Assembly: GCA_965225945.1 (NCBI GenBank)
Contig: CBDDBZ010000032.1
Span: 256,001-320,000, forward strand
Direction of reading: 5' to 3'
Length of the DNA stretch: 64,000 nt
Source: Alphaproteobacteria bacterium
Lineage (GTDB): Bacteria > Pseudomonadota > Alphaproteobacteria > GCA-2731375
Shown: piece by piece, positions 1,365 to 34,410 of the stretch
Layout: each line of letters starts with the position of its first letter
Position numbering within the stretch: the first letter of the stretch is position 1
The notes under the pieces: model-generated
The model's database searches: none
Told to the model about the DNA's origin: nothing
What the model saw: the letters and a program-made list of their open reading frames with translations, nothing else
Translations under genes and position numbers: made by a program

Positions 1365-2576
1365 ATGCTCGATCGAAGCGAGGAGCAAAAGGACAAGCTG
1401 GCGATCATCTTCTCGAACGTCGGCCACACTTATACCCACTTGTTCACGGTGCTCTACGCCACCGCCGTGCTCTACCTGCCCAAGGTCTTCGAGCTGCCCT
1501 ACGGCGAGATGTTGAGTCTCTCGAGCCTCGGCCTGGTGCTGTTCGGCGTGGCCGCGGTGCCGGCCGGCTGGCTCGCCGACCGCTGGAGCCGGATCGCCAT
1601 GTTGGTGGTGTTCTTCGTCGGCATGGGGGGCGGCGCGATCGTCACCGGGCTCGCGGACGGGCCGGAGATGCTGTTCGTCGGCCTGACCCTGATCGGCCTC
1701 TTCGCCGCGATCTATCACCCCGTCGGCATCGCCTGGATCGTCGCCTCGGCCAGGCGCCAGGGCATGTCGCTCGGCATCAACGGGGTCTTCGGCAACATCG
1801 GCAACGCCATCGCGCCGATCTTCGTCGGCCTGATGATCGACTATGTCGATTGGCGCGCAGCCTTCGTGCTGCCCGGCATCCTTTCGGTGCTGAGCGGCTT
1901 CGCCCTGCTGGTGGCCTGGCGGCGCGGCTGGGTCAGCGAAGCGACGACGGACCGGGCGCCCGCGCCCGCGCCCGATTCCGGTGCCTTGGTCCGGGTCTTC
2001 ATCGTGCTCACCATCACCATGGCCTGCACCGGATTCGTTTATGCCGGCCTCGCCAACACCATGCCGAAGCTGTTCGAATTGGGCCTCGGGCCCGAGCTCG
2101 TGGGCAGCTATACCCGGATCGGCGTCTTCGTCGGCGTGATCACCGGTTTTGCCTCGTTCAGCAGCATGATCGGCGGCTGGCTGGCGGATCGCTTCGCGGC
2201 GCGCTCGATTTACTTCGTCTTCTGGACCTTGCAGGTGCCGCTGCTGTTCGTCGTCGTCTCGCTCACCGGCGCCTCGCTGCTGGTCGCGACCTTCCTGGTG
2301 TTGAGCTTCAACCTTGCCTTCACGGCGGCCGAGAACATGCTGGTTGCCCACTACACGCCCTTCCGCTGGCGCTCGCTCGCCTATGGCGCCAAGTTCGTGC
2401 TGGCCTTGGGCGTCGGCGGGCTGACGGTGCATCTCGCCGGCTCGATGTTCGATCGGGACGGCGGCTTCGCGCTGCTCTATAGCCTCTTCGCCGTGGCGGC
2501 GATCGCGGCGGCGGTGATCGCGCTCCTGCTGCCGGGCCGCCGGCGCCCGGCCACGGTCCCCCTCGGCGCCGATTGA
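1365..2576 (+). CDS. MFS transporter
   Basis: 403 aa, about 12 hydrophobic segments, GWLADRWSR and GWLADRFAAR MFS loop motifs. Confidence 0.9.
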   Translation: MLDRSEEQKDKLAIIFSNVGHTYTHLFTVLYATAVLYLPKVFELPYGEMLSLSSLGLVLFGVAAVPAGWLADRWSRIAMLVVFFVGMGGGAIVTGLADGPEMLFVGLTLIGLFAAIYHPVGIAWIVASARRQGMSLGINGVFGNIGNAIAPIFVGLMIDYVDWRAAFVLPGILSVLSGFALLVAWRRGWVSEATTDRAPAPAPDSGALVRVFIVLTITMACTGFVYAGLANTMPKLFELGLGPELVGSYTRIGVFVGVITGFASFSSMIGGWLADRFAARSIYFVFWTLQVPLLFVVVSLTGASLLVATFLVLSFNLAFTAAENMLVAHYTPFRWRSLAYGAKFVLALGVGGLTVHLAGSMFDRDGGFALLYSLFAVAAIAAAVIALLLPGRRRPATVPLGAD

Positions 2577-2690
2577 CCTCAGCTTTCGGCGCCCAAGGAG
2601 CGCCCGCCGAGCCGCCTCGAGGGCGGATTCGGCCGCATCAACACGGGAAATAGGATTGCGAGGCGAAAGCCGGTGGGACTTATTTCACGA

Positions 2691-4175
2691 TCAGCGAATC
2701 CAGGCCAAGGCGTAGTATACGGCCGCCGAGATGGTCGCGGTTGCCGGCACGGTGATGAGCCACGCCGCGATGATGGTGAGGAAATGGCTGCGTCTAACCA
2801 GCTTGCGGTGGCGCAATTCCTCGGCTCCAAGCGCGATTTCGCCAGCCTTGCCGGCGTCGCGGCGCTGGCCGACGATCTTCCGCCGCTTCTTGCTGTGCTT
2901 GGTAAAGTACTCGCGAAAGAACCCAACGCCGAAGACCGCCCCCACCGCGATATGCGTGGAAGAGACGGGCAAGCCGAACCACGAGGCGACGATCACCGTG
3001 ATTGCCGCCGACAAGGCGACGCAATAGGCCCGCATCGGGTTCATCTTGGTGATTTTGTCACCGACCATCCGGATCAGCTTGGGGCCGTAGAGGAAGAGCC
3101 CCAGGCTGATCCCGAAGGCGCCGATCATCATGATCCACGTCGGGATCTCGACCTTTCCGGCGACGTCACCGAACTGAACGCTATGCAGGATGGCGGCCAG
3201 GGGCGCGATCGCGTTGGCCACGTCGTTGGCCCCGTGCGCGAAGGACAGCAACGCGGCGGAGCAAATCAGAGGAATGCGAAACAGCGTCCTGAGCGATTGG
3301 TTGCGGTTTTCCATCCCCGCCGACTGCCGCCAAATCAGCGGGCGCATCACCAGCCAGGTGATCGCGAAGCAAACCAAACCGATCATCGCCGTCGTGACTT
3401 GGCTCGGATGCCAGACGCGCTTGAGCCCCTTGACCGACAGATAATATGCGAAGGCACCGGCCATGATCGCCACGAGTAACGGCACCCAGCGCCGTGCCGC
3501 GGCGATCTTGTCGTCCTGGTAGATTACCTTGATTTTTATCAAGGCGAGGAACAGGGCGGCAATGACGCCGCCCATGACCGGCGAGAGTATCCAACTCGCG
3601 GCGATCGCGCCCATGGTCCCCCAATTGACGAGTTGGAATCCAACGGCGGCGATGCCCGCCCCCACCACGCCGCCGACCACCGCATGCGTGGTCGAGACAG
3701 GGGCGCCGATATAGGTCGCCAGATTGACCCAAACCGCCGAGGAAATGAGTGCCGCCATCATCGCCCAGACGAAAGTGCTGCTGTCGGCGACCTGGGCCGG
3801 ATCGATGATGCCCTTCGACACCGTCGCCACCACGTCGCCGCCCGCGATCAGCGCGCCCGCGCTCTCGAAGACCGCCGCGATCAGCAAGGCACCGACCATG
3901 GTCAGCGCGCGCGAGCCGACCGCCGGGCCGACGTTGTTGGCGACGTCGTTGGCGCCGATGTTGAGCGCCATGTAACCGCCTAGGATCGCGGCGAAAATGA
4001 CCGTCGCGGTATCGGCGGCGACGCCGGATTGGATGGCGGCGATCAGCGCGGTCGAACCGAGGAAGACCAGCGCGAAGCCGTGCGAAGCGATACCGCTCGC
4101 CGTCGTACGGACCGCCACCTCGACGTGAACGATCTTCTCGAGGTCCTTGTCGAGCGTTTGTTTCGTCGGGGTCAT
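2691..4175 (-). CDS. pit: PiT-family inorganic phosphate transporter
   Basis: Two GANDVAN signatures, PVSTTH and PVSSTH motifs. Confidence 0.93.
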   Translation of the reverse strand: MTPTKQTLDKDLEKIVHVEVAVRTTASGIASHGFALVFLGSTALIAAIQSGVAADTATVIFAAILGGYMALNIGANDVANNVGPAVGSRALTMVGALLIAAVFESAGALIAGGDVVATVSKGIIDPAQVADSSTFVWAMMAALISSAVWVNLATYIGAPVSTTHAVVGGVVGAGIAAVGFQLVNWGTMGAIAASWILSPVMGGVIAALFLALIKIKVIYQDDKIAAARRWVPLLVAIMAGAFAYYLSVKGLKRVWHPSQVTTAMIGLVCFAITWLVMRPLIWRQSAGMENRNQSLRTLFRIPLICSAALLSFAHGANDVANAIAPLAAILHSVQFGDVAGKVEIPTWIMMIGAFGISLGLFLYGPKLIRMVGDKITKMNPMRAYCVALSAAITVIVASWFGLPVSSTHIAVGAVFGVGFFREYFTKHSKKRRKIVGQRRDAGKAGEIALGAEELRHRKLVRRSHFLTIIAAWLITVPATATISAAVYYALAWIR

Positions 4176-23561: not shown

Positions 23562-24487
23562 ATGAGCGGGATATTGGAGTTCCTCGAACGCCATGGATCG
23601 GAGGCGGACTGCATCGAGGCGCTGGCTCGGCTGCGCTGGCCGCAAGGCTACGTCTGCGCGCGTTGCGGCGAGAGGCGGAACTACCTTGAAGACGCGGCCG
23701 CGGGTGAATGGCCGGTTGCGGCCATTCGGTGACCGCGGGCACGTCTTCGTTGCGCAAATGGTTCCTGGCGGCTGGATGGGGCGCGAGCGCGGGGTCTCGG
23801 CGCTGTTTCTGTCGCGAGAGTTGAGCCTTACGACACCGCCTGGCTGATGGCCCCAAGCTGCGCCATGCCCTGACGGAGCGCCCGGAGTTCCCGCTGGAGG
23901 GCTTGGTCGAGGTCGACGAGAGCTATTACGGCGGGCGGGGCAAGCCGGAGAGCCGGGGGCGCGGGCTTTCCAACCCGAACAAGAGCCTGTTGGTGATGGC
24001 GGTCGAGAAGTGGCCGGTCGGGTCGGGCAAGGGCATCAAGGGGAGCGGCTTCGCCGCCGGCGCCGCGCGGCTCGCCATCCTGCCCGAGGCCACCGCCCGT
24101 GAGTTGGGCGACTTCGTGCGCGCCTCGGTGAAGCCGGGAAGCCGCCTCGACAGCGACGCTTTCAAGAGTTACGCCAAGCTTGGCGATACTTATCGCCACC
24201 AGCCCGTCGTTCAAGGCCAAGGCAAGAACGCCGAGCAGCTCATGCCGGTCGTCCATGTCCTGTTTTCCAACGTGAAGACGTGGCTCAACGGAACCTACCA
24301 CGGGGTGAGCGCCAAGCATTTGCCGCGCTACGTCCGGGAATGGAACTACCGCTTCAACCGGCGCAAACGCATCTTCGACCTTGCCGATTTCGTGTTGCAC
24401 CGCGCCATGACCCGACCGACCATCACCTACAGGGAACTGGTCGACGGTATACAATCGCAGGGAGCGCTGCCTGCCCTAACCGGATAG
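23562..24487 (+). pseudogene. IS1595 transposase, frameshifted
   Basis: Zn-ribbon start (RWPQGYVCARC), VEVDESYYGG, KHLPRYVREWNYRFNRR; ten small deletions relative to copy 2. Confidence 0.9.
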
Positions 24488-24604
24488 GGACGATATCTTA
24501 AATTCAGAATATGAAGGTATCGATCAAAGCATTGAAATGAATTGGCTTTCTTGAGCCGCGTGCGGCCGGTGGGATTTCGTTCTGCAAATTCTTCGATTTT
24601 TCTA

Positions 24605-27190: not shown

Positions 27191-28369
27191 TCAGTCATCC
27201 TCTGCTTTCCAAGTGATGTAGGGTTTTTCGGTGGTTTCCCATTTCTCGTCGATTTCGACGAGGATGGCGGTGACCAGACGTTCGAGCGAGGCCTCGTTGG
27301 GAAAGACCCTGACCTTTACGGTGCGGCGCTTGATCTCCTGCTGGATGGATCGCTCCATGGGGTTCGAGGTTCGCATGCGCTTTTGGTGGCGCTCGGGCAG
27401 GGCGAAGACGGCGAGGCCCTCGGGGATCGCCGTCTCCAGCCAATCGGCGAGCTTGGGGGCGCTGTCGCGGTAGGCCGCCACCAGATGGCCCAGCTCGGCC
27501 TCGGCGGCCTTGCCGTCGGCGGCGTTCCAGACCCGGCGCAGCTCCTTGCCGATGGCCTTTCGGATGGCGAGGTTGGGGGCGTGATGGATGGCGTTTTGAG
27601 CCAGATGGTACTGACAGCGCTGCCAGACGGCGCCGCCGAGGACGGCCTTGCGCGCGGCGCCGAGGCCTGGATGATCATCGGAAACGATATAGGCGACACC
27701 GCGCATGCCACGGGCAACCAGGGTCTCCAGGAAGGCGCGCCAGTGCACTTCGGCCTCGGAGAGCGCACAGGAAACACCGAGCACCCGGCGGCGCTGGTCG
27801 GGGCCGATGCCGATCACCGAGAGCACGGCGGCGTCGCGCACCACGCCACCCTCTCGGACTTTCTCATAGCGCGCGTCGAGGAGCAGGTAGCGGATCTCGC
27901 CCAGCGGCCGGTTGCGCCAGGCATCCAGCTCCCCATCCAAGAGCTTGGCGGCGCGGCTGACCTGGCTCGACGACAGGCTCTCCAGGCCGAACTCGCGCAT
28001 CACCGCCTCGGCGTCACGGGTGGAGACGCCTTTGATATACATCTCCGCCACGGCCAGCATGACAGCGCGGCAGGAGCGCCGTCCGCGCTCCAGGGCTTGG
28101 GGGTAAAAAGGCGCCTCATGACCGGCGGTCTTGGGAACCTCGAGCCTCACCGTACCGGCCGGGGTGTCGATCTTCTTGGGTCTGGTGCCGTTGGCGTATC
28201 CCCGCCGCTCGGGCGTGCGCTCATAGTGGCCGGCGCCCAAGAACCTCTCCCGCTCGATCCGCATGGCGAGATTGAAAAGGCCGGCGAAGACCGTCGCCAT
28301 GTTCTCGCTACCGCCTTCGATCAATTGTTCCACCAAAGCCTCGACAGCGCTATCCTGGTCTTTCCGCAT
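27191..28369 (-). CDS. IS256-family transposase
   Basis: GYANG, GVSTRD, YLLLDARYEKVR, VSDDHPGL, WQRCQYH, RTSNPMER. Confidence 0.95.
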   Translation of the reverse strand: MRKDQDSAVEALVEQLIEGGSENMATVFAGLFNLAMRIERERFLGAGHYERTPERRGYANGTRPKKIDTPAGTVRLEVPKTAGHEAPFYPQALERGRRSCRAVMLAVAEMYIKGVSTRDAEAVMREFGLESLSSSQVSRAAKLLDGELDAWRNRPLGEIRYLLLDARYEKVREGGVVRDAAVLSVIGIGPDQRRRVLGVSCALSEAEVHWRAFLETLVARGMRGVAYIVSDDHPGLGAARKAVLGGAVWQRCQYHLAQNAIHHAPNLAIRKAIGKELRRVWNAADGKAAEAELGHLVAAYRDSAPKLADWLETAIPEGLAVFALPERHQKRMRTSNPMERSIQQEIKRRTVKVRVFPNEASLERLVTAILVEIDEKWETTEKPYITWKAEDD

Positions 28370-28421
28370 ACTGGTTCTCCATGTTTGTTTGGACGCTTTC
28401 ATGGATAACCAAAATGACGGA

Positions 28422-28457: not shown

Positions 28458-28611
28458 AGCCAAATTTCCAGACCTCACGCTACACAAGGTAGTCCATAGG
28501 AGGGGCCCGCGCGCGGGCCGACGCGCCCACCACGCGGCTGGCGGCGGACCGCGCGTGGGAGGTTCCTGTGGGCCCACCTGGGCGACCGGGCGGCAGGTGG
28601 ATCGGTTGCCT

Positions 28612-29340
28612 TTAGGACCGATTCTTGAAGCGCCAGGAGTCGTTTCCGGTCTCGATGATCTCGCAGTGGTGCGTCAGACGATCGAGGAGCGCGGTGGTCA
28701 TCTTGGCGTCGCCGAAGACGGACGGCCATTCGCCGAAGGTCAGGTTGGTGGTGACGATGATCGAGGTGCGCTCGTAGAGCCGGCTGACGAGGTGGAACAG
28801 CAGCTGGCCTCCGGTTTGGGCGAAGGGCAGGTAGCCGAGCTCGTCGAGGATGACGAGGTCGCGCCGGGCCAGCTGATCGGCGAGCCGGCCCTGGCGGCCG
28901 GCGCGGGCTTCGGCCTCGAGCCGGTTGACCAGGTCGACGACGTTGAAGAAGCGGCCCCGGGCGCCATCGCGGATGCAGGCCCGCGCGATGGCGACGGCGA
29001 GATGGCTCTTGCCGGTGCCGGTGCCGCCGATCAGCACGGCGTTGCGCTGGTTGGCCAGGAAGCCGCCGACCGCCAACTCGCGGACCAGCGGCTCGTTGAC
29101 CGGGGTGTCGGTGAAGTCGAAGTCGGCCAGCTCCTTGGCCAGCGGCAGCTTGGCGCCACTCATCTGGTACTTGATGGATCGCGCCTGCTTGTCGGCGATC
29201 TCGGCCTTCAACAGCTCGCCGATGATTCGCTGCATCGGATGCTGGCGCTTGAGGCCGTCGGCGAGCACCTCGTCGAACGCGTCGCGCATGCCGGCGAGCT
29301 TGAGTGCGGCCATCATCTCCAGGACCTCATGGCGCTCCAT
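28612..29340 (-). CDS. istB: IS21 helper ATPase IstB
   Basis: GGTGTGKSH Walker [23 protein letters not shown]. Confidence 0.96.
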
Positions 29341-30632
29341 GGCCGACCCCCCTCAAGCGGTCGTAGCGGGTGCAATCGGCCACCGGCTCAAAGCGAAGAC
29401 GCAGGTTCGCGGGCGTCGGGATCGGCGCCGTCTCGGACGGCTGGCGCCGACGATTGAGGATGTTGAGCACGACGTCGGCGCTGCACACGCCGCCAGCGAG
29501 CGCCTCGGCACAGGCGGCCTCCACCGCCGCCAGCCCATCCGCCAGCACGGCGGTGAGGATCTCGACCATCTGCCTGTCGCCGTCGTCGTGGCCGGCGAGC
29601 CGGACGCGCACGCGACCCAGGGCGCCGGGCAGCGCCCAGTCCTTGAACGGCGCGCCGTTACGAAGCGCACCGGGCTTCCTCGCCAGCACGGGCACGTAGT
29701 GCCACGGGTCATAGACGGTCTGGTCGCGGCCGAAGCGCCGGGCATGCTCGGCGACGATCTCGCCGTCCTGGCGGATGACGATGCGATCGGCGTAGGCATG
29801 GACCTCGACCGGACGGCCGACGGCGCGCGCCGCCACGCTGTACTTGTTGCTGTCGAAGCGCACCAGGCAGGTCTTCGACACCGACGCCGGGACCGCGTGG
29901 AAGCCGTCGAACGGCCCGCGATAGCCGACCAGGGACGGACGCTCGTCCTCGAACACCTGCCAGACAGTCCTGTCCTTGAACACCGGGTGGGGATGACGCC
30001 GGGCGTAGGCGACGCACTGGTCCAAGAGCCAGGCGTTGAGCTCGTCGTAGGTCTTGAAGCGCAGCCGCGGGGTGAAGAACCGACCGCGGATGATCCCGAC
30101 CTGGTTCTCGACCTGCCCCTTCTCCCATCCCGCTCCCGGCGTGCATGCTGTCGGTTCGACCAGGTAGTGGCCACACATCTGCACGAAGCGCCGGTTGAAC
30201 GCGCGCTCCTTGCCGATGAGGACGGTCTGCACCGCCGTCTTCATGTTGTCGTAGATGCCTCGCCGGCAGGCACCCTGGAACAGCCGGAATGCCCGGCCGT
30301 GGGCGTCGAACACCATCTCCTGGCTCTCGCGCGGATAAGCGCGGACGAAGAATATTCCTTGCCTATCCGGTTATCACCCACACCCACTATATGTAGTGTG
30401 CACCCATTTTCCTGAGTAAAGCTCGGTGCAGGTCGAAGCGGAGATATCTCCGGCGATGCCGAGCAGGGACTCGGACGGCATTGTAGCGCCTTTTAGGCGA
30501 CACTTTAGCGTGGTGGAAATCCTAATCATTGAGTCGGATTTGGCAAAACGCCACGTTGCATAAAGGACCGTCACTTCATTGAAATTTATCTGAAATCGGA
30601 GGTGAACGACACCGATGGAATATTCCAGGAAA

Positions 30633-30941
30633 TCAGAGCTTCATTGAATTGTAGGATTCGAGTGCCGGATTATTCACAAATAGCTCTGTGAACTGGTTTT
30701 CAAGTTCGCTCAATACGCCATATGAAGTAAACGGATTGAGGATCACGTTCTTGCGTGTCGCTTCGTCTTCGCTGCGACTCAAAACGCGCAGGAGACTAAC
30801 AGGCGCGGACGGGTTCTTCGCAACGATTCGTGCCAGCGCGTCGCTTTCTTCGACTAGTGCCGTCAATCGCTCAGACGATGTCGTTTCATCAGCAGCTTCC
30901 CGTCTGGCCGTGGGTTTCTTCGTTTTTCCCTTGGTCGCCAC
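30633..30941 (-). CDS. Small LRV/HEAT-like repeat protein (cassette passenger)
   Basis: VAKNPSAPVSLLRVL, VILNPFTSYGVLSEL and FVNNPAL repeats; GGGGA RBS. Confidence 0.65.
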   Translation of the reverse strand: MATKGKTKKPTARREAADETTSSERLTALVEESDALARIVAKNPSAPVSLLRVLSRSEDEATRKNVILNPFTSYGVLSELENQFTELFVNNPALESYNSMKL

Positions 30942-31081
30942 CGTTCCGTCCCCCGATGTTAAATACGTGACGTGAATTAAACTCCGGTTCGGTTTTCAGA
31001 ACAATCAAGAATTAGCCGGATCGCCTCCTCAATGCGCCTGCGCCGGCCCTTGCCTGCAGTCCAAGGAGACACACTACATAT

Positions 31082-32010
31082 CGTCCCTATCCGGTTAAGG
31101 CAGGCAGCGCTCCCTGCGATTGTATACCGTCGACCAGTTCCCTGTAGGTGATGGTCGGTCGGGTCATGGCGCGGTGCAACACGAAATCGGCAAGGTCGAA
31201 GATGCGTTTGCGCCGGTTGAAGCGGTAGTTCCATTCCCGGACGTAGCGCGGCAAATGCTTGGCGCTCACCCCGTGGTAGGTTCCGTTGAGCCACGTCTTC
31301 ACGTTGGAAAACAGGACATGGACGACCGGCATGAGCTGCTCGGCGTTCTTGCCTTGGCCTTGAACGACGGGCTGGTGGCGATAAGTATCGCCAAGCTTGG
31401 CGTAACTCTTGAAAGCGTCGCTGTCGAGGCGGCTTCCCGGCTTCACCGAGGCGCGCACGAAGTCGCCCAACTCACGGGCGGTGGCCTCGGGCAGGATGGC
31501 GAGCCGCGCGGCGCCGGCGGCGAAGCCGCTCCCCTTGATGCCCTTGCCCGACCCGACCGGCCACTTCTCGACCGCCATCACCAACAGGCTCTTGTTCGGG
31601 TTGGAAAGCCCGCGCCCCCGGCTCTCCGGCTTGCCCCGCCCGCCGTAATAGCTCTCGTCGACCTCGACCAAGCCCTCCAGCGGGAACTCCGGGCGCTCCG
31701 TCAGGGCATGGCGCAGCTTGTGGGCCATCAGCCAGGCGGTGTCGTAGCGCAGGCTCAACTCTCGCGACAGAAACAGCGCCGAGACCCCGCGCTTGTCGCG
31801 CCCCATCCACCACGCCGCCAGGAACCATTTGCGCAACGGTGTGCGGGTGCGGTGGAAGACCGTGCCCGCGGTCACCGATTCCTGATGGCCGCAACCGGCG
31901 CATTCGAAGACCCGCGGCCGCGTCTTCAATTGGTAGTTCCGCCTCTCGCCGCAACGCGCCCAGACGTAGCCTTGCGGCCAGCGCAGCCGAGCCAGCGCCT
32001 CGATGCAGTC
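31082..32010 (-). mobile_element. IS1595-family element, copy 2, left end missing
   Basis: Near-identical to copy 1; TIR at 31082-31098; reading frame intact but 5' end lost and a Zn-ribbon Cys changed to Trp (YVWARC). Confidence 0.9.
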
Positions 32011-32888
32011 CGCCTGCGCCGGCCCTTGCCTGCAGTCCAAGGAGACACACTACATATAGTGGGTGTGGGTGATAACCGGATAGGCAAGGAACATTCGGCT
32101 GTGGCACAGCCGGACGTGCGCGACCTTGACCTTGGTCGTCACCCCCGCCAGCACCACGTACTCGTGGCTCCAGTCGAACTGATAGGCCTCGCCCGGCGAG
32201 AACACCAACGGCACATAGGTCTGCGCCGTCGATGCCGAACGGCGCCACCGCCACGCCTTGGCGTAGCGCCGCACCGCGTCGTAGCCGCCGCCATAGCCCA
32301 GGCCCTCGAGGGCTTCGGAGATCCGTAGCAGCGTCAGCCGCTCCCGCTTCGACTTGGTCTCGTTGGCCTCCAGCATCCGCTCCAGCTCGGCCGTCCACGG
32401 CCCCAGCTTCGGCATCGGCTGGACCCGCCGGTCGTAGGTGAACGCCGTCGCCTGCGAACGGATCACCTTGCGCACCGTGTTGCCCGAGACCTTCACGTCC
32501 CGCACGATCTCCTTGATCGGCTTCCCCTTGACGAAATACTCCCGCCGGATCCGCGCTATCGTCTCCACGACCAACATCCCCCACCACCTCGTCCGCCCAA
32601 AAACGAGGTGACTTGGACTAGCCAGGCTCAGGGGGTCAAATTTGGACGCCGATCACCCCTCAACAGGGGTCAACTTTGCACGCCGTTCCACAAGCTAAGT
32701 GTAGCGAAGAGGCGGACCCGCTCAAGGCTATACCGAACGTTGCGAAGATGCTTGAATGCCAACAAGCTCGGACGGCGACTCTTGGCTATCAATGACCGAA
32801 TCGGCCGAATCAGCGGCACGGGGAATATACCCCCAATCCCGATTTCCGGGGACACCGATGGAGTGCACCCCCTGGATGACACAAAGAA

Positions 32889-33750
32889 TCAGGGACAGTT
32901 GGTTGTCATTTCCAGCGCCCGCCGGGCGGCGGTCTCTGGGGTGATTATGGTGTTTTCGAACTCCTCTGGTGATAGGTATCGAAGCGCCGAGTGGAGGCGC
33001 GTCTTGTTGTAGACCTCTTTGATGAAGCTGGCGATGTCGCTCTCGGCGTGGGCGATGTCCCGGTAGGGCCTGCCCTCAACCTCCTCTGTCTTCAAGGTCT
33101 TCATGAAGCTCTCCGCCATGGCGTTGTCGTAAGGGCAGGCGATCCGGCTCATCGAGGGCAGGATGCCATGGGCCTCCAGGCGGGCGATGTAGTCGCCGGA
33201 GGCATATTGAACGCCGCGATCGGAGTGATGCACCAGGCCATCGGGGATCACCTCGCGCTCCAGAAGCGCCATATCCAAGGCCGCCAGCGTCAGGCTCGCC
33301 TTCAGATGATCGGCCAAGGCCCAGCCGATGACGCGCCGGCTGTGCGCATCGAGCACGACCGCCAGATAGGCGAAGCCCTCCAGCAAGCGAACATAGGTGA
33401 TGTCGGCGACCCAGAGCTGGTTGGGGGCCGTCGTCTCCAACCGGCGCGCCAGGCTGGGATAGATCCGATAGCTATGCTTCGAGTCCGTGGTAGCCGGCGC
33501 GAAGCTCCGTCGACGCAGGCATAGCAGATTGTCCTCGCGCATCAAACGCAGCACCCGCTTGTGGTTGACGCTCCAGCCCTCGCGCCGCAACAGCGCCCCG
33601 ATCCGCCGATAGCCGTAATGTTTGTTGTCGATCGCCCAAGCGCTGGAGCTTATCGCGTAACGCCGTTTCCTCAGCCCTCGGCCTCGATGCCCGCCAATGG
33701 CGGTGAAAGCTCGATCGGCTCAGCCCCATCAGATCGCACATCCGTCCCAT
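32889..33750 (-). pseudogene. IS3 OrfB integrase with a +1 frameshift near 33636
   Basis: YGYRRI, WVADITY, HHSDRGVQY, DNAMAESF; one extra G in TTGGGCG (may be a sequencing error). Confidence 0.85.
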
Positions 33751-33752
33751 GC

Positions 33753-34211
33753 TCAATCCGCCTTGCCGCCGCGACCCGGCCCGGACGAGGCCGAAGACGC
33801 GCTCCCGCCAGAGCGACCGTTCGCTCCGCGGCAGCTCTCCGAGAGCCGCAAGGCTTGCCTGAAAAAATCCGCTTCCAAGGCCTGCTGGCCGACCTTCCGC
33901 TCCAGCTCGGCGATCCGCCGGCGCGCCAGGCTCAGGGCATCCGGCCGGACCGCCGGAACAGCACTTTCGGACCCGGCGCGGAGGCCTTGCGCCCGCCTCC
34001 CTCCGACGACCGTGCTTCCCTTTCTGGGCCGGCCGGGCGGGCGCAAGGCCTCCGCGCCGCCCGCTCGGTAGGCATCGCGCCACTCGTAGAGCAGCTTGCG
34101 CCGGACCTCGAGCTCGCGTGACAGCGCCGAGACGTTCTCGCCCGACTCCATCCGCGCCAGCGCCGACAGCTTGAAGTCTCGGCTGAAACGCCGTGCACCT
34201 TTTCGTTCCAT
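33753..34211 (-). CDS. IS3 OrfA
   Basis: RRFSRDFKL HTH, RIAELERKVGQQALEADFF zipper; GAGGAGG RBS. Confidence 0.9.
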   Translation of the reverse strand: MERKGARRFSRDFKLSALARMESGENVSALSRELEVRRKLLYEWRDAYRAGGAEALRPPGRPRKGSTVVGGRRAQGLRAGSESAVPAVRPDALSLARRRIAELERKVGQQALEADFFRQALRLSESCRGANGRSGGSASSASSGPGRGGKAD

Positions 34212-34410
34212 CAGTTCCTCCTCGGAAGAACTGTCACTCATTTCTCTGTGTCAGGACAGGGGTGCGGTCCACCGATTTCCGGGGACCAGATTTCCGGGGA
34301 CAGTTGCCGATTTCTTAATTCCCTGCCGGTTTTCGCCCACATTCAAAGAGTTCTCAAAGACATCGTGATCCACGGTCCGCCCTTCATCTCATGGTGGAGG
34401 GTCGCCCAAG

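Follow-up and report, generated by a model that had tools for sequence, protein, structure and literature searches.

A 755-bp cassette with IS1595-type ends and an LRV-repeat gene, present in many copies in an alphaproteobacterial genome, and one copy of it with a nested insertion sequence

What is the 1731-bp unit that splits an istA gene in this stretch of alphaproteobacterial DNA, how does it move, and what does the small repeat-protein gene inside it do? The stretch, referred to here as the window, comprises 64,000 nucleotides of contig CBDDBZ010000032.1 (positions 256,001 to 320,000 of the forward strand; GenBank assembly GCA_965225945.1, Alphaproteobacteria bacterium, lineage GCA-2731375), and the unit occupies window positions 30358–32088. 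A first-pass annotation, made from the sequence of the window, had described it as a transposase-less cassette related to insertion sequences (ISs) of the IS1595 family and carrying an LRV/HEAT-repeat passenger gene. The unit is most probably one copy of a 755-bp non-autonomous IS1595-family derivative, a mobile insertion cassette (MIC), in which an IS1595-family element, here called IS-A, was nested later, while a second IS1595-family element, IS-B, is the presumed helper. The features of the cassette are given below, with c1–c755 denoting positions in the 755-bp unit.

30358–32088: cassette, whole 1731-bp form, consisting of one copy of the 755-bp unit plus the nested IS-A
30358–30400 (+): left 43-bp terminal inverted repeat, c1–c43
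32046–32088 (-): right 43-bp terminal inverted repeat, c713–c755
30350–30357: left copy of the target duplication, GAATATTC, with one substitution
32089–32096: right copy of the target duplication, GAACATTC
30358–31081 (+): cassette body, c1–c724, with two differences from the consensus of the 755-bp copies of the genome
32016–32088 (+): cassette c683–c755, the first 42 nt of which (32016–32057) repeat 31040–31081
30633–30941 (-): gene for a 102-aa LRV_2 protein, GTG start, the only intact gene of the cassette
30942–31006 (-): leader of this gene, delimited in an alignment of seven elements
30377–30469 (-): remnant of the carboxy-terminus of an IS-B-type transposase, 31 aa
31082–32015 (-): IS-A, truncated nested IS1595-family element, positions 1–934 of 1078
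32011–32015: 5-nt microhomology CGCCT at the hybrid joint between IS-A and cassette

The two 43-nt arms are 100% complementary, and the same 43-mer is found at the ends of other copies. As the flanking sequences are nearly palindromic, a repeat search lengthens them to 51 nt, at 98%. These flanks match each other at seven of eight positions. In 47 uninterrupted IS21 copies sharing the same 20-nt flanks, the empty site is a single GAACATTC in all 47, and the insertion was therefore clean, with 8 bp duplicated and the left copy substituted later. The insertion point is located about 163 codons into istA. Over 30500–30800, the G+C content is 0.40–0.47, against 0.65–0.75 in the IS21 flanks. The perfect inverted repeats, the near-perfect 8-bp duplication around a clean insertion into istA, the low-GC cargo and the 102-aa repeat protein had all been put forward in the first-pass annotation and stand as described, and its estimate of about 755 bp for the unit without the nested IS proves to be exact.

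The genome (6.27 Mb in 39 contigs) was searched with the first 30 nt of the cassette end, allowing up to three mismatches. The 164 tip matches form 68 inward-facing pairs, with 28 matches left unpaired. The pairs are spread over 26 contigs and have differing target duplications: a perfect 8-bp duplication, the length expected of the IS1595 family, is present in 51 of the 68, and one with a single mismatch in another five. The remaining 12 have unrelated flanks, some of which are seen again at further copies, a pattern that recombination among copies would produce. Forty-six of the pairs are exactly 755 bp long; 22 of these are identical to the consensus, and the mean pairwise identity of the 46 is 0.9968. 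With 68 copies at 99.7% identity, the amplification must be recent. The first-pass annotation would have fallen had there been no further end pairs or duplication-flanked copies, which is clearly not the case. Five end pairs are 1.5–2.4 kb long and contain further insertions, and the 1731-bp form of the window is unique in the genome. A logo of the 51 clean target sites is loosely palindromic and A+T-rich, G-W-W-Y-R-W-W-C, with G at position 1 in 37 sites, C at position 8 in 35, and A or T at positions 2, 3, 6 and 7.

The sole contents of the intact 755-bp unit are the LRV_2 open reading frame (ORF) and the 31-aa transposase remnant; an Rfam search of the intact cassette gave no match. When the genome was searched with the 15-nt tip at up to one mismatch, 191 matches were found. 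About 157 of them are of the cassette type (150 with one identical inner sequence and about seven single variants) and 31 are ends of IS-B (21 left, 10 right); no other element family sharing these tips was seen among the 191. The expectation of sister copies with different cargo, and with it the proposed role as a general gene shuttle, is not borne out, as cassette-type ends in this genome enclose the same cargo or nested ISs, and the same ORF is a fixed part of the family in other genomes.

The nested element, IS-A, is a 1078-bp IS with short imperfect inverted repeats and a longest transposase frame of 322 aa; its transposase matches PF12760 (Zn_ribbon_IS1595) at 35.4 bits, PF12762 (DDE_Tnp_IS1595) at 100.8 bits and NF033547 at 175.8 bits. 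Seventeen other copies are present in the genome, 14 of which have both ends and a perfect 8-bp duplication, mostly NTA-first. In the window, the left inverted repeat is present, but identity to the 17 other copies ends at 32015 (position 934 of 1078), so that the last 144 bp are gone; these include the leader and the first 14 codons of the transposase gene as well as the right inverted repeat. The 317-aa frame at 31087–32040 consequently begins in cassette sequence. The first-pass annotation had treated the nested IS as a simple nested insertion, which does not fit this truncation.

The joint itself is a hybrid. IS-A lies at CTACATAT, which corresponds to c717–c724 (window 31074–31081), and insertion there alone would leave c717–c755 behind IS-A. 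Instead, the 55-nt direct repeat D1, with a core of 42 nt (31040–31081 equal to 32016–32057), flanks the element, and both of its copies match the cassette consensus. On balance, IS-A has lost its last 144 bp, and 34 bp of cassette stand in their place, joined at the 5-nt microhomology. No other instance of this arrangement of IS-A and cassette exists in the genome. On a different contig, a second cassette (C4:70085–71927) contains a complete IS-A at the same CTACATAT, in the other arm; the use of this site once in each arm, in two different cassettes, suggests that it is a hotspot for IS-A. A degenerate IS-A copy is located in the window at 23599–24491, 6 kb upstream of the cassette (95% identity, 1035 bp, transposase frame broken).

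In public assembled contigs from four of four runs, the istA joint is uninterrupted, as expected from the other IS21 copies, and past 32015 the full IS-A continues. The runs that cover most of the 9.9-kb stretch include some labelled as sponge metagenome. One run from an RNA library has contigs over the cassette, which is not evidence of transcription.

IS-B, the second IS1595 element, is 1105 bp long and present in about ten copies, most with an open transposase frame of 339–350 aa (example at L027:845–1949) containing the Zn_ribbon_IS1595 and DDE_Tnp_IS1595 domains. The cassette tip is identical to the left tip of IS-B (16 of 16 positions) and matches its right end at 30 of 32, and over the first 126 nt IS-B and the cassette are 77% identical. 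The remnant forms the final 31 residues of a small frame (30374–30574) within the segment c46–c257 and is 71% identical (22 of 31) to residues 308–338 of the IS-B transposase; the cassette would therefore derive from an element of the IS-B type in which other DNA took the place of the transposase gene. Perfect duplications are present in four of 12 IS-B-type copies (GTTCGATC, GTAGGAAT, GATTGTCC and GATCGAAT), all starting with G like those of the cassette.

Since the cassette encodes no transposase and yet is present in about 70 near-identical copies, it must be moved in trans. As judged from the shared ends and the remnant, IS-B would be the source of the transposase. The description of the unit as a transposase-less cassette thus stands, with its ends now assigned to the IS-B type. 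Of the earlier proposal of mobilisation in trans, the principle is kept, while the local IS-A turns out to be a poor helper candidate and IS-B fits better. IS-B orthologues (71–81% amino acid identity, with 8-bp duplications) are present in three of five other cassette-bearing genomes, where their tips largely match those of the resident cassette; of the 40 nt compared between the IS and cassette ends in one of them, nearly all match. Among 40 relatives, three contain the cassette cargo, and IS-B is present at 98–99% identity in two of the three.

End-swapped forms of IS-B itself were also observed. A 1631-bp composite is present at C14:57696–59326, C15:7573–9203 and C1:44070–45700, and a 1658-bp version of it at C33:95821–97478 and C38:177697–179354, with a sixth copy cut by a contig end. 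In it, 13 nt separate a full IS-B from its first 513 nt in inverted copy, which places outward-facing left ends of IS-B on both sides; the composite looks like a further end-swapped derivative transposing as a unit. A 1121-bp variant (C34:188810–189930 and C19:59701–60821) has left-end sequence at both termini, i.e. perfect inverted ends, together with a 331-aa transposase frame and perfect 8-bp duplications.

The product of the cassette ORF scores 33.4 bits against Pfam LRV_2 (PF25591), for which the cut-off is 27 (E 4.5e-8). In the leader of the gene, a G-rich sequence resembling a ribosome-binding site precedes the GTG by 7 nt. Relatives retain a pair of motifs, TTGTTC...TTAATT (31006 to 30974), which by eye is a putative promoter. 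A promoter and terminator scan of the cassette did not flag the leader and gave no more than shuffled sequences did. The single sigma-70-like match (one, against a shuffled mean of 0.5, and so not above expectation) is at L029:242–269 (-), equivalent to window 30519–30546 (-), downstream of the ORF and facing the left end; it could read outward. The predicted structure is all-helical with a basic, disordered amino-terminus (mean predicted local distance difference test score, pLDDT, 75). A Foldseek comparison of this model with the PDB gave nothing at E<=1e-3, only weak ARM/HEAT-like rows, and an ESM Atlas search returned LRV clusters only. No match was found in PADLOC, PHROGs or NCBIfam and nothing meaningful in a PDB sequence profile search; profile comparison with the transposase revealed no similarity, and a scan of viral contigs no relative of the ORF.

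Within the genome, there are 63 full-length tblastn matches to the protein, 51 of them identical to each other; G75 of the window copy is D in most of the others. A profile search gave 73 LRV_2 matches, 71 of which are above the cut-off. All are in frames of at most 214 aa with the score profile of the cassette, and no long LRV protein was found in the genome by this search.

Outside the genome, 234 related proteins were found at E<=1e-3. The 120 listed of these are 73–98% identical, mostly exactly 102 aa long and mostly on contigs of 0.5–3 kb; an alignment of 20 relatives contains no indels. Twelve relatives are longer, nearly all of them single-member clusters, and no recurring fusion was seen among them. 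DNA was compared for 18 loci from genome records, mostly alphaproteobacterial metagenome-assembled genomes with four distant cyanobacterial or unclassified ones, and for 29 metagenome loci. At these loci, the ends on either side of the ORF are of the cassette kind, with duplications wherever these were read, and the element is usually 514–580 bp long. The frame is intact in 29 of 42 external loci. Both ends are in view in 22 of the 29 metagenome loci: 20 of these elements are 514–580 bp long and two are of the 755-bp type, which is otherwise seen in a few close relatives. In the alignment of seven elements, the short form of about 540 bp lacks c46–c257, the stretch holding the transposase remnant.

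The median pairwise ratio of non-synonymous to synonymous substitution rates (dN/dS) is 0.265 (interquartile range 0.22–0.34; 403 pairs of 30 intact sequences), with values of 1 or more in two pairs, and differences at the three codon positions number 678, 353 and 958. Mean identity is 0.82–0.83 for the ends, 0.76 for the ORF, 0.62 for the leader and 0.54 for the region after the ORF. On these comparisons, the ORF is a fixed part of the whole cassette family, kept by purifying selection.

Proteins sharing the first 95 or so residues, at 43–55% identity, are encoded by cyanobacteria (in tandem at L021:1438–2370 and 2418–3293, and at L025:1462–2361). They are about 300 aa long, continue into many LRV repeats and are located outside any such cassette; genes of this kind may have been the source of the cassette ORF. 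In a viral contig, an element of about 925 bp (L080:309–1231) has related ends (…TGCCTATCCGGTT…) but a gene for a 283-aa N6_N4 DNA methylase where the LRV gene would be. A perfect duplication of GAACATTC, the 8-mer that is also the target in the window, flanks this element. Cassettes with ends of a related lineage can therefore carry other cargo.

Other explanations of the unit and of its gene differ widely in how well they fit. With a 317-aa transposase frame and the LRV ORF between one pair of perfect 43-bp ends and one duplication, the whole 1731-bp unit has the outward form of a single autonomous IS1595 transporter IS, but this can hardly be correct: the transposase-encoding portion is an independent element, found with ends and duplications of its own at 17 further sites, it lacks the right end and native start in the window, and the 1731-bp form occurs once, against 46 exact copies of the 755-bp form. 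The transposase frame thus belongs to a separate, truncated element, which contradicts this explanation. That IS-A mobilises the cassette is improbable, if less so. The first 16 nt of its ends (CGTCCCTATCCGGTTA, from 31082) match the cassette tip at 14 positions, as the first-pass annotation had counted, several of its 17 other copies have an open 322-aa transposase frame, and both elements belong to the IS1595 family. However, the likeness stops after the tip, the IS-A transposase is only 36% identical to that of IS-B, its mostly NTA-first duplications differ from the G-first, C-last ones of the cassette, and the remnant and subterminal DNA of the cassette are of the IS-B type.

As for the gene, it is very unlikely to be a decaying, functionless relic whose conservation reflects the youth of the copies. 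The near-identical copies within the genome indeed carry no information on selection, and the ORF variants they share are all non-synonymous; between genomes, however, the frame remains open at 101–102 aa down to 66–75% identity and is better conserved than the neighbouring spacers, and the dN/dS and codon-position differences contradict a relic. A more serious alternative, although we still consider it unlikely, is that the protein is a host-directed passenger, a protein-binding repeat useful to the cell or its host, or manipulating it, so that selection acts on the bacteria and not on transposition. LRV/HEAT-like repeats are protein-binding modules, in agreement with the helical model and its weak ARM/HEAT matches; the same amino-terminal module heads the cyanobacterial proteins outside cassettes, a related-end cassette carries a methylase instead, and the abundance of IS-B in a genome without an intact cassette (see below) implies that its transposase does not need the protein. 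A passenger role leaves unexplained why the minimal form, seen in 20 of the 22 two-ended metagenome loci, consists of ends and one ORF, and why, in the genome, these ends were seen with no cargo but this one; old copies decay, so the host does not defend each copy, and the defence and phage databases gave no match. Our best guess is instead that the LRV protein serves the spread or persistence of the element itself, given that purifying selection acts on the ORF and that nothing else is constant in the contents of a minimal element. In a specific form of this idea, which is speculative and somewhat less likely than the passenger role, the protein would act as an adaptor: by binding either the transposase of the IS-B lineage or a host factor, it would direct transposition to cassette ends, and the cassette would be a protein-coding hyperparasite of its parent IS. 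An adaptor would explain the reduction to ends plus ORF, the low dN/dS across lineages while stranded old copies decay, and the ratio of cassette to IS-B, about 7:1 here against more than 50 IS-B copies in the genome without an intact cassette.

Several observations weigh against the reading of the unit as a MIC with IS-B as its helper and a selected ORF. The third of the relatives with cassette cargo (cassette pieces 99–100% identical; an assembly fragmented into 360 contigs) has no IS-B match at E<=1e-60. Of the five other cassette-bearing genomes, one is without any match at E<=1e-10 and another has just a 51% relative, the completeness of these genomes not being established, and in one genome the IS and cassette tips differ at position 2. 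A complete genome from another family of the same class (G029) contains at least 52 IS-B matches at 99% amino acid identity, with only a truncated cassette (99% DNA identity) and a diverged fragment; spread of IS-B therefore proceeds well in the absence of the LRV protein, and having a helper is no guarantee of cassette expansion. In the genome of the window, older copies at 77–88% DNA identity contain stops and frameshifts, and the three ORF variants shared by at least two copies are all non-synonymous and none synonymous, although polymorphism is sparse; the signal of selection on the ORF thus comes from between-genome comparisons only. Finally, among the public contig pieces listed for the four runs, none bridges the joints specific to the window, and the arrangement there rests on the assembly.

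With the unit read as a MIC, its history may be reconstructed as follows. The cassette lineage would have started from an IS-B-type element by replacement of the transposase gene, and IS-B transposase supplied in trans would have amplified it. The window copy landed in istA of an IS21 element, and IS-A inserted at CTACATAT in its right end; the cassette may have entered istA alone or already carrying IS-A. A break at the right end of IS-A was then probably repaired using another cassette copy as template, with loss of the last 144 bp of the IS and gain of 34 bp of cassette.

The host element and its surroundings are composed of further mobile elements:

28487–32692 (-): IS21-family element, with limits set by the end of multi-copy similarity; matches to the Pfam families IstB_IS21 and Mu-transpos_C_2
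28612–29340 (-): istB, intact, part of the IS21-family element
29327–30357 and 32089–32577 (-): istA, split in two, part of the IS21-family element
27191–28402: gene of a Mutator-family (IS256-like) transposase, beside the IS21 element
32889–34241: IS3-type pair (HTH_Tnp_1 and rve), on the other side

An uninterrupted IS21 copy elsewhere encodes a 503-aa transposase (NF033546) and IstB (NF038214). The region is an insertion-sequence pile-up, and IS21 alone is present in about 50 copies in the genome.

About 50 kb of the genome consists of the cassette, whose insertions have interrupted other elements and probably genes too. Gene callers would render it as some 70 identical "hypothetical proteins", missing the mark of a mobile element. 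The family is widespread in alphaproteobacterial genomes and in many metagenomes and probably breaks assemblies, as it is usually found on very short contigs. Near-identical IS-B and cassette DNA in different families indicates, and thus records, recent horizontal transfer. With a short, conserved ORF and IS-B named as candidate helper, the cassette also offers a test case for whether a non-autonomous element can encode help in competing for the transposase of its parent.

In the partial literature collection searched, no paper was found on an LRV-carrying IS1595 cassette. Features of the IS1595 family are known (PMC8101967). IS-A (1078 bp) and IS-B (1105 bp) conform to this family in having both Pfam domains and 8-bp duplications, and the cassette has the ends and duplication length of IS-B but no transposase. 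Its putative assignment to the ISSod11 group is based on the end motif nnnGcnTATC, which is reportedly of the ISSod11 type (Siguier et al. 2009). Transporter ISs, reportedly described by Siguier, Gagnevin and Chandler in 2009, are IS1595-family elements with passenger genes beside the transposase; they share with the cassette a non-transposase gene between IS1595-type ends, but keep their own transposase, and the 1731-bp form in the window mimics their layout only through the broken nested IS.

When compared with known LRV proteins (PF01816, PF25591), for which an Azotobacter vinelandii structure exists, the cassette protein passes the LRV_2 cut-off and shares its first 95 or so residues with the longer cyanobacterial proteins, but is only 102 aa long, stands alone and, in the Alphaproteobacteria seen, is always encoded inside a transposable cassette. 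[quoted passage not shown] By definition, MITEs are small and non-coding, whereas most of the cassette, which is 755 bp long and about 540 bp in relatives, consists of a conserved protein gene with a dN/dS of about 0.27.

MICs are a named class (PMC3281130). The cassette shares with them IS ends, the lack of a transposase, one or a few genes inside and target duplications, as well as, by prediction, the use of a parent transposase in trans. The MIC231 elements, derived from IS231 in Bacillus cereus, carry varied passenger genes. The cassette family differs from MIC231 in that nearly all members seen carry the same single ORF, which is fixed and under purifying selection, and in its number of about 70 copies within one genome, which is closer to a MITE burst. 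The cassette thus belongs to a known class, that of the MICs, within which the LRV-carrying family stands out for how many copies it has reached, how widely it is distributed and for a cargo that is fixed and under selection.

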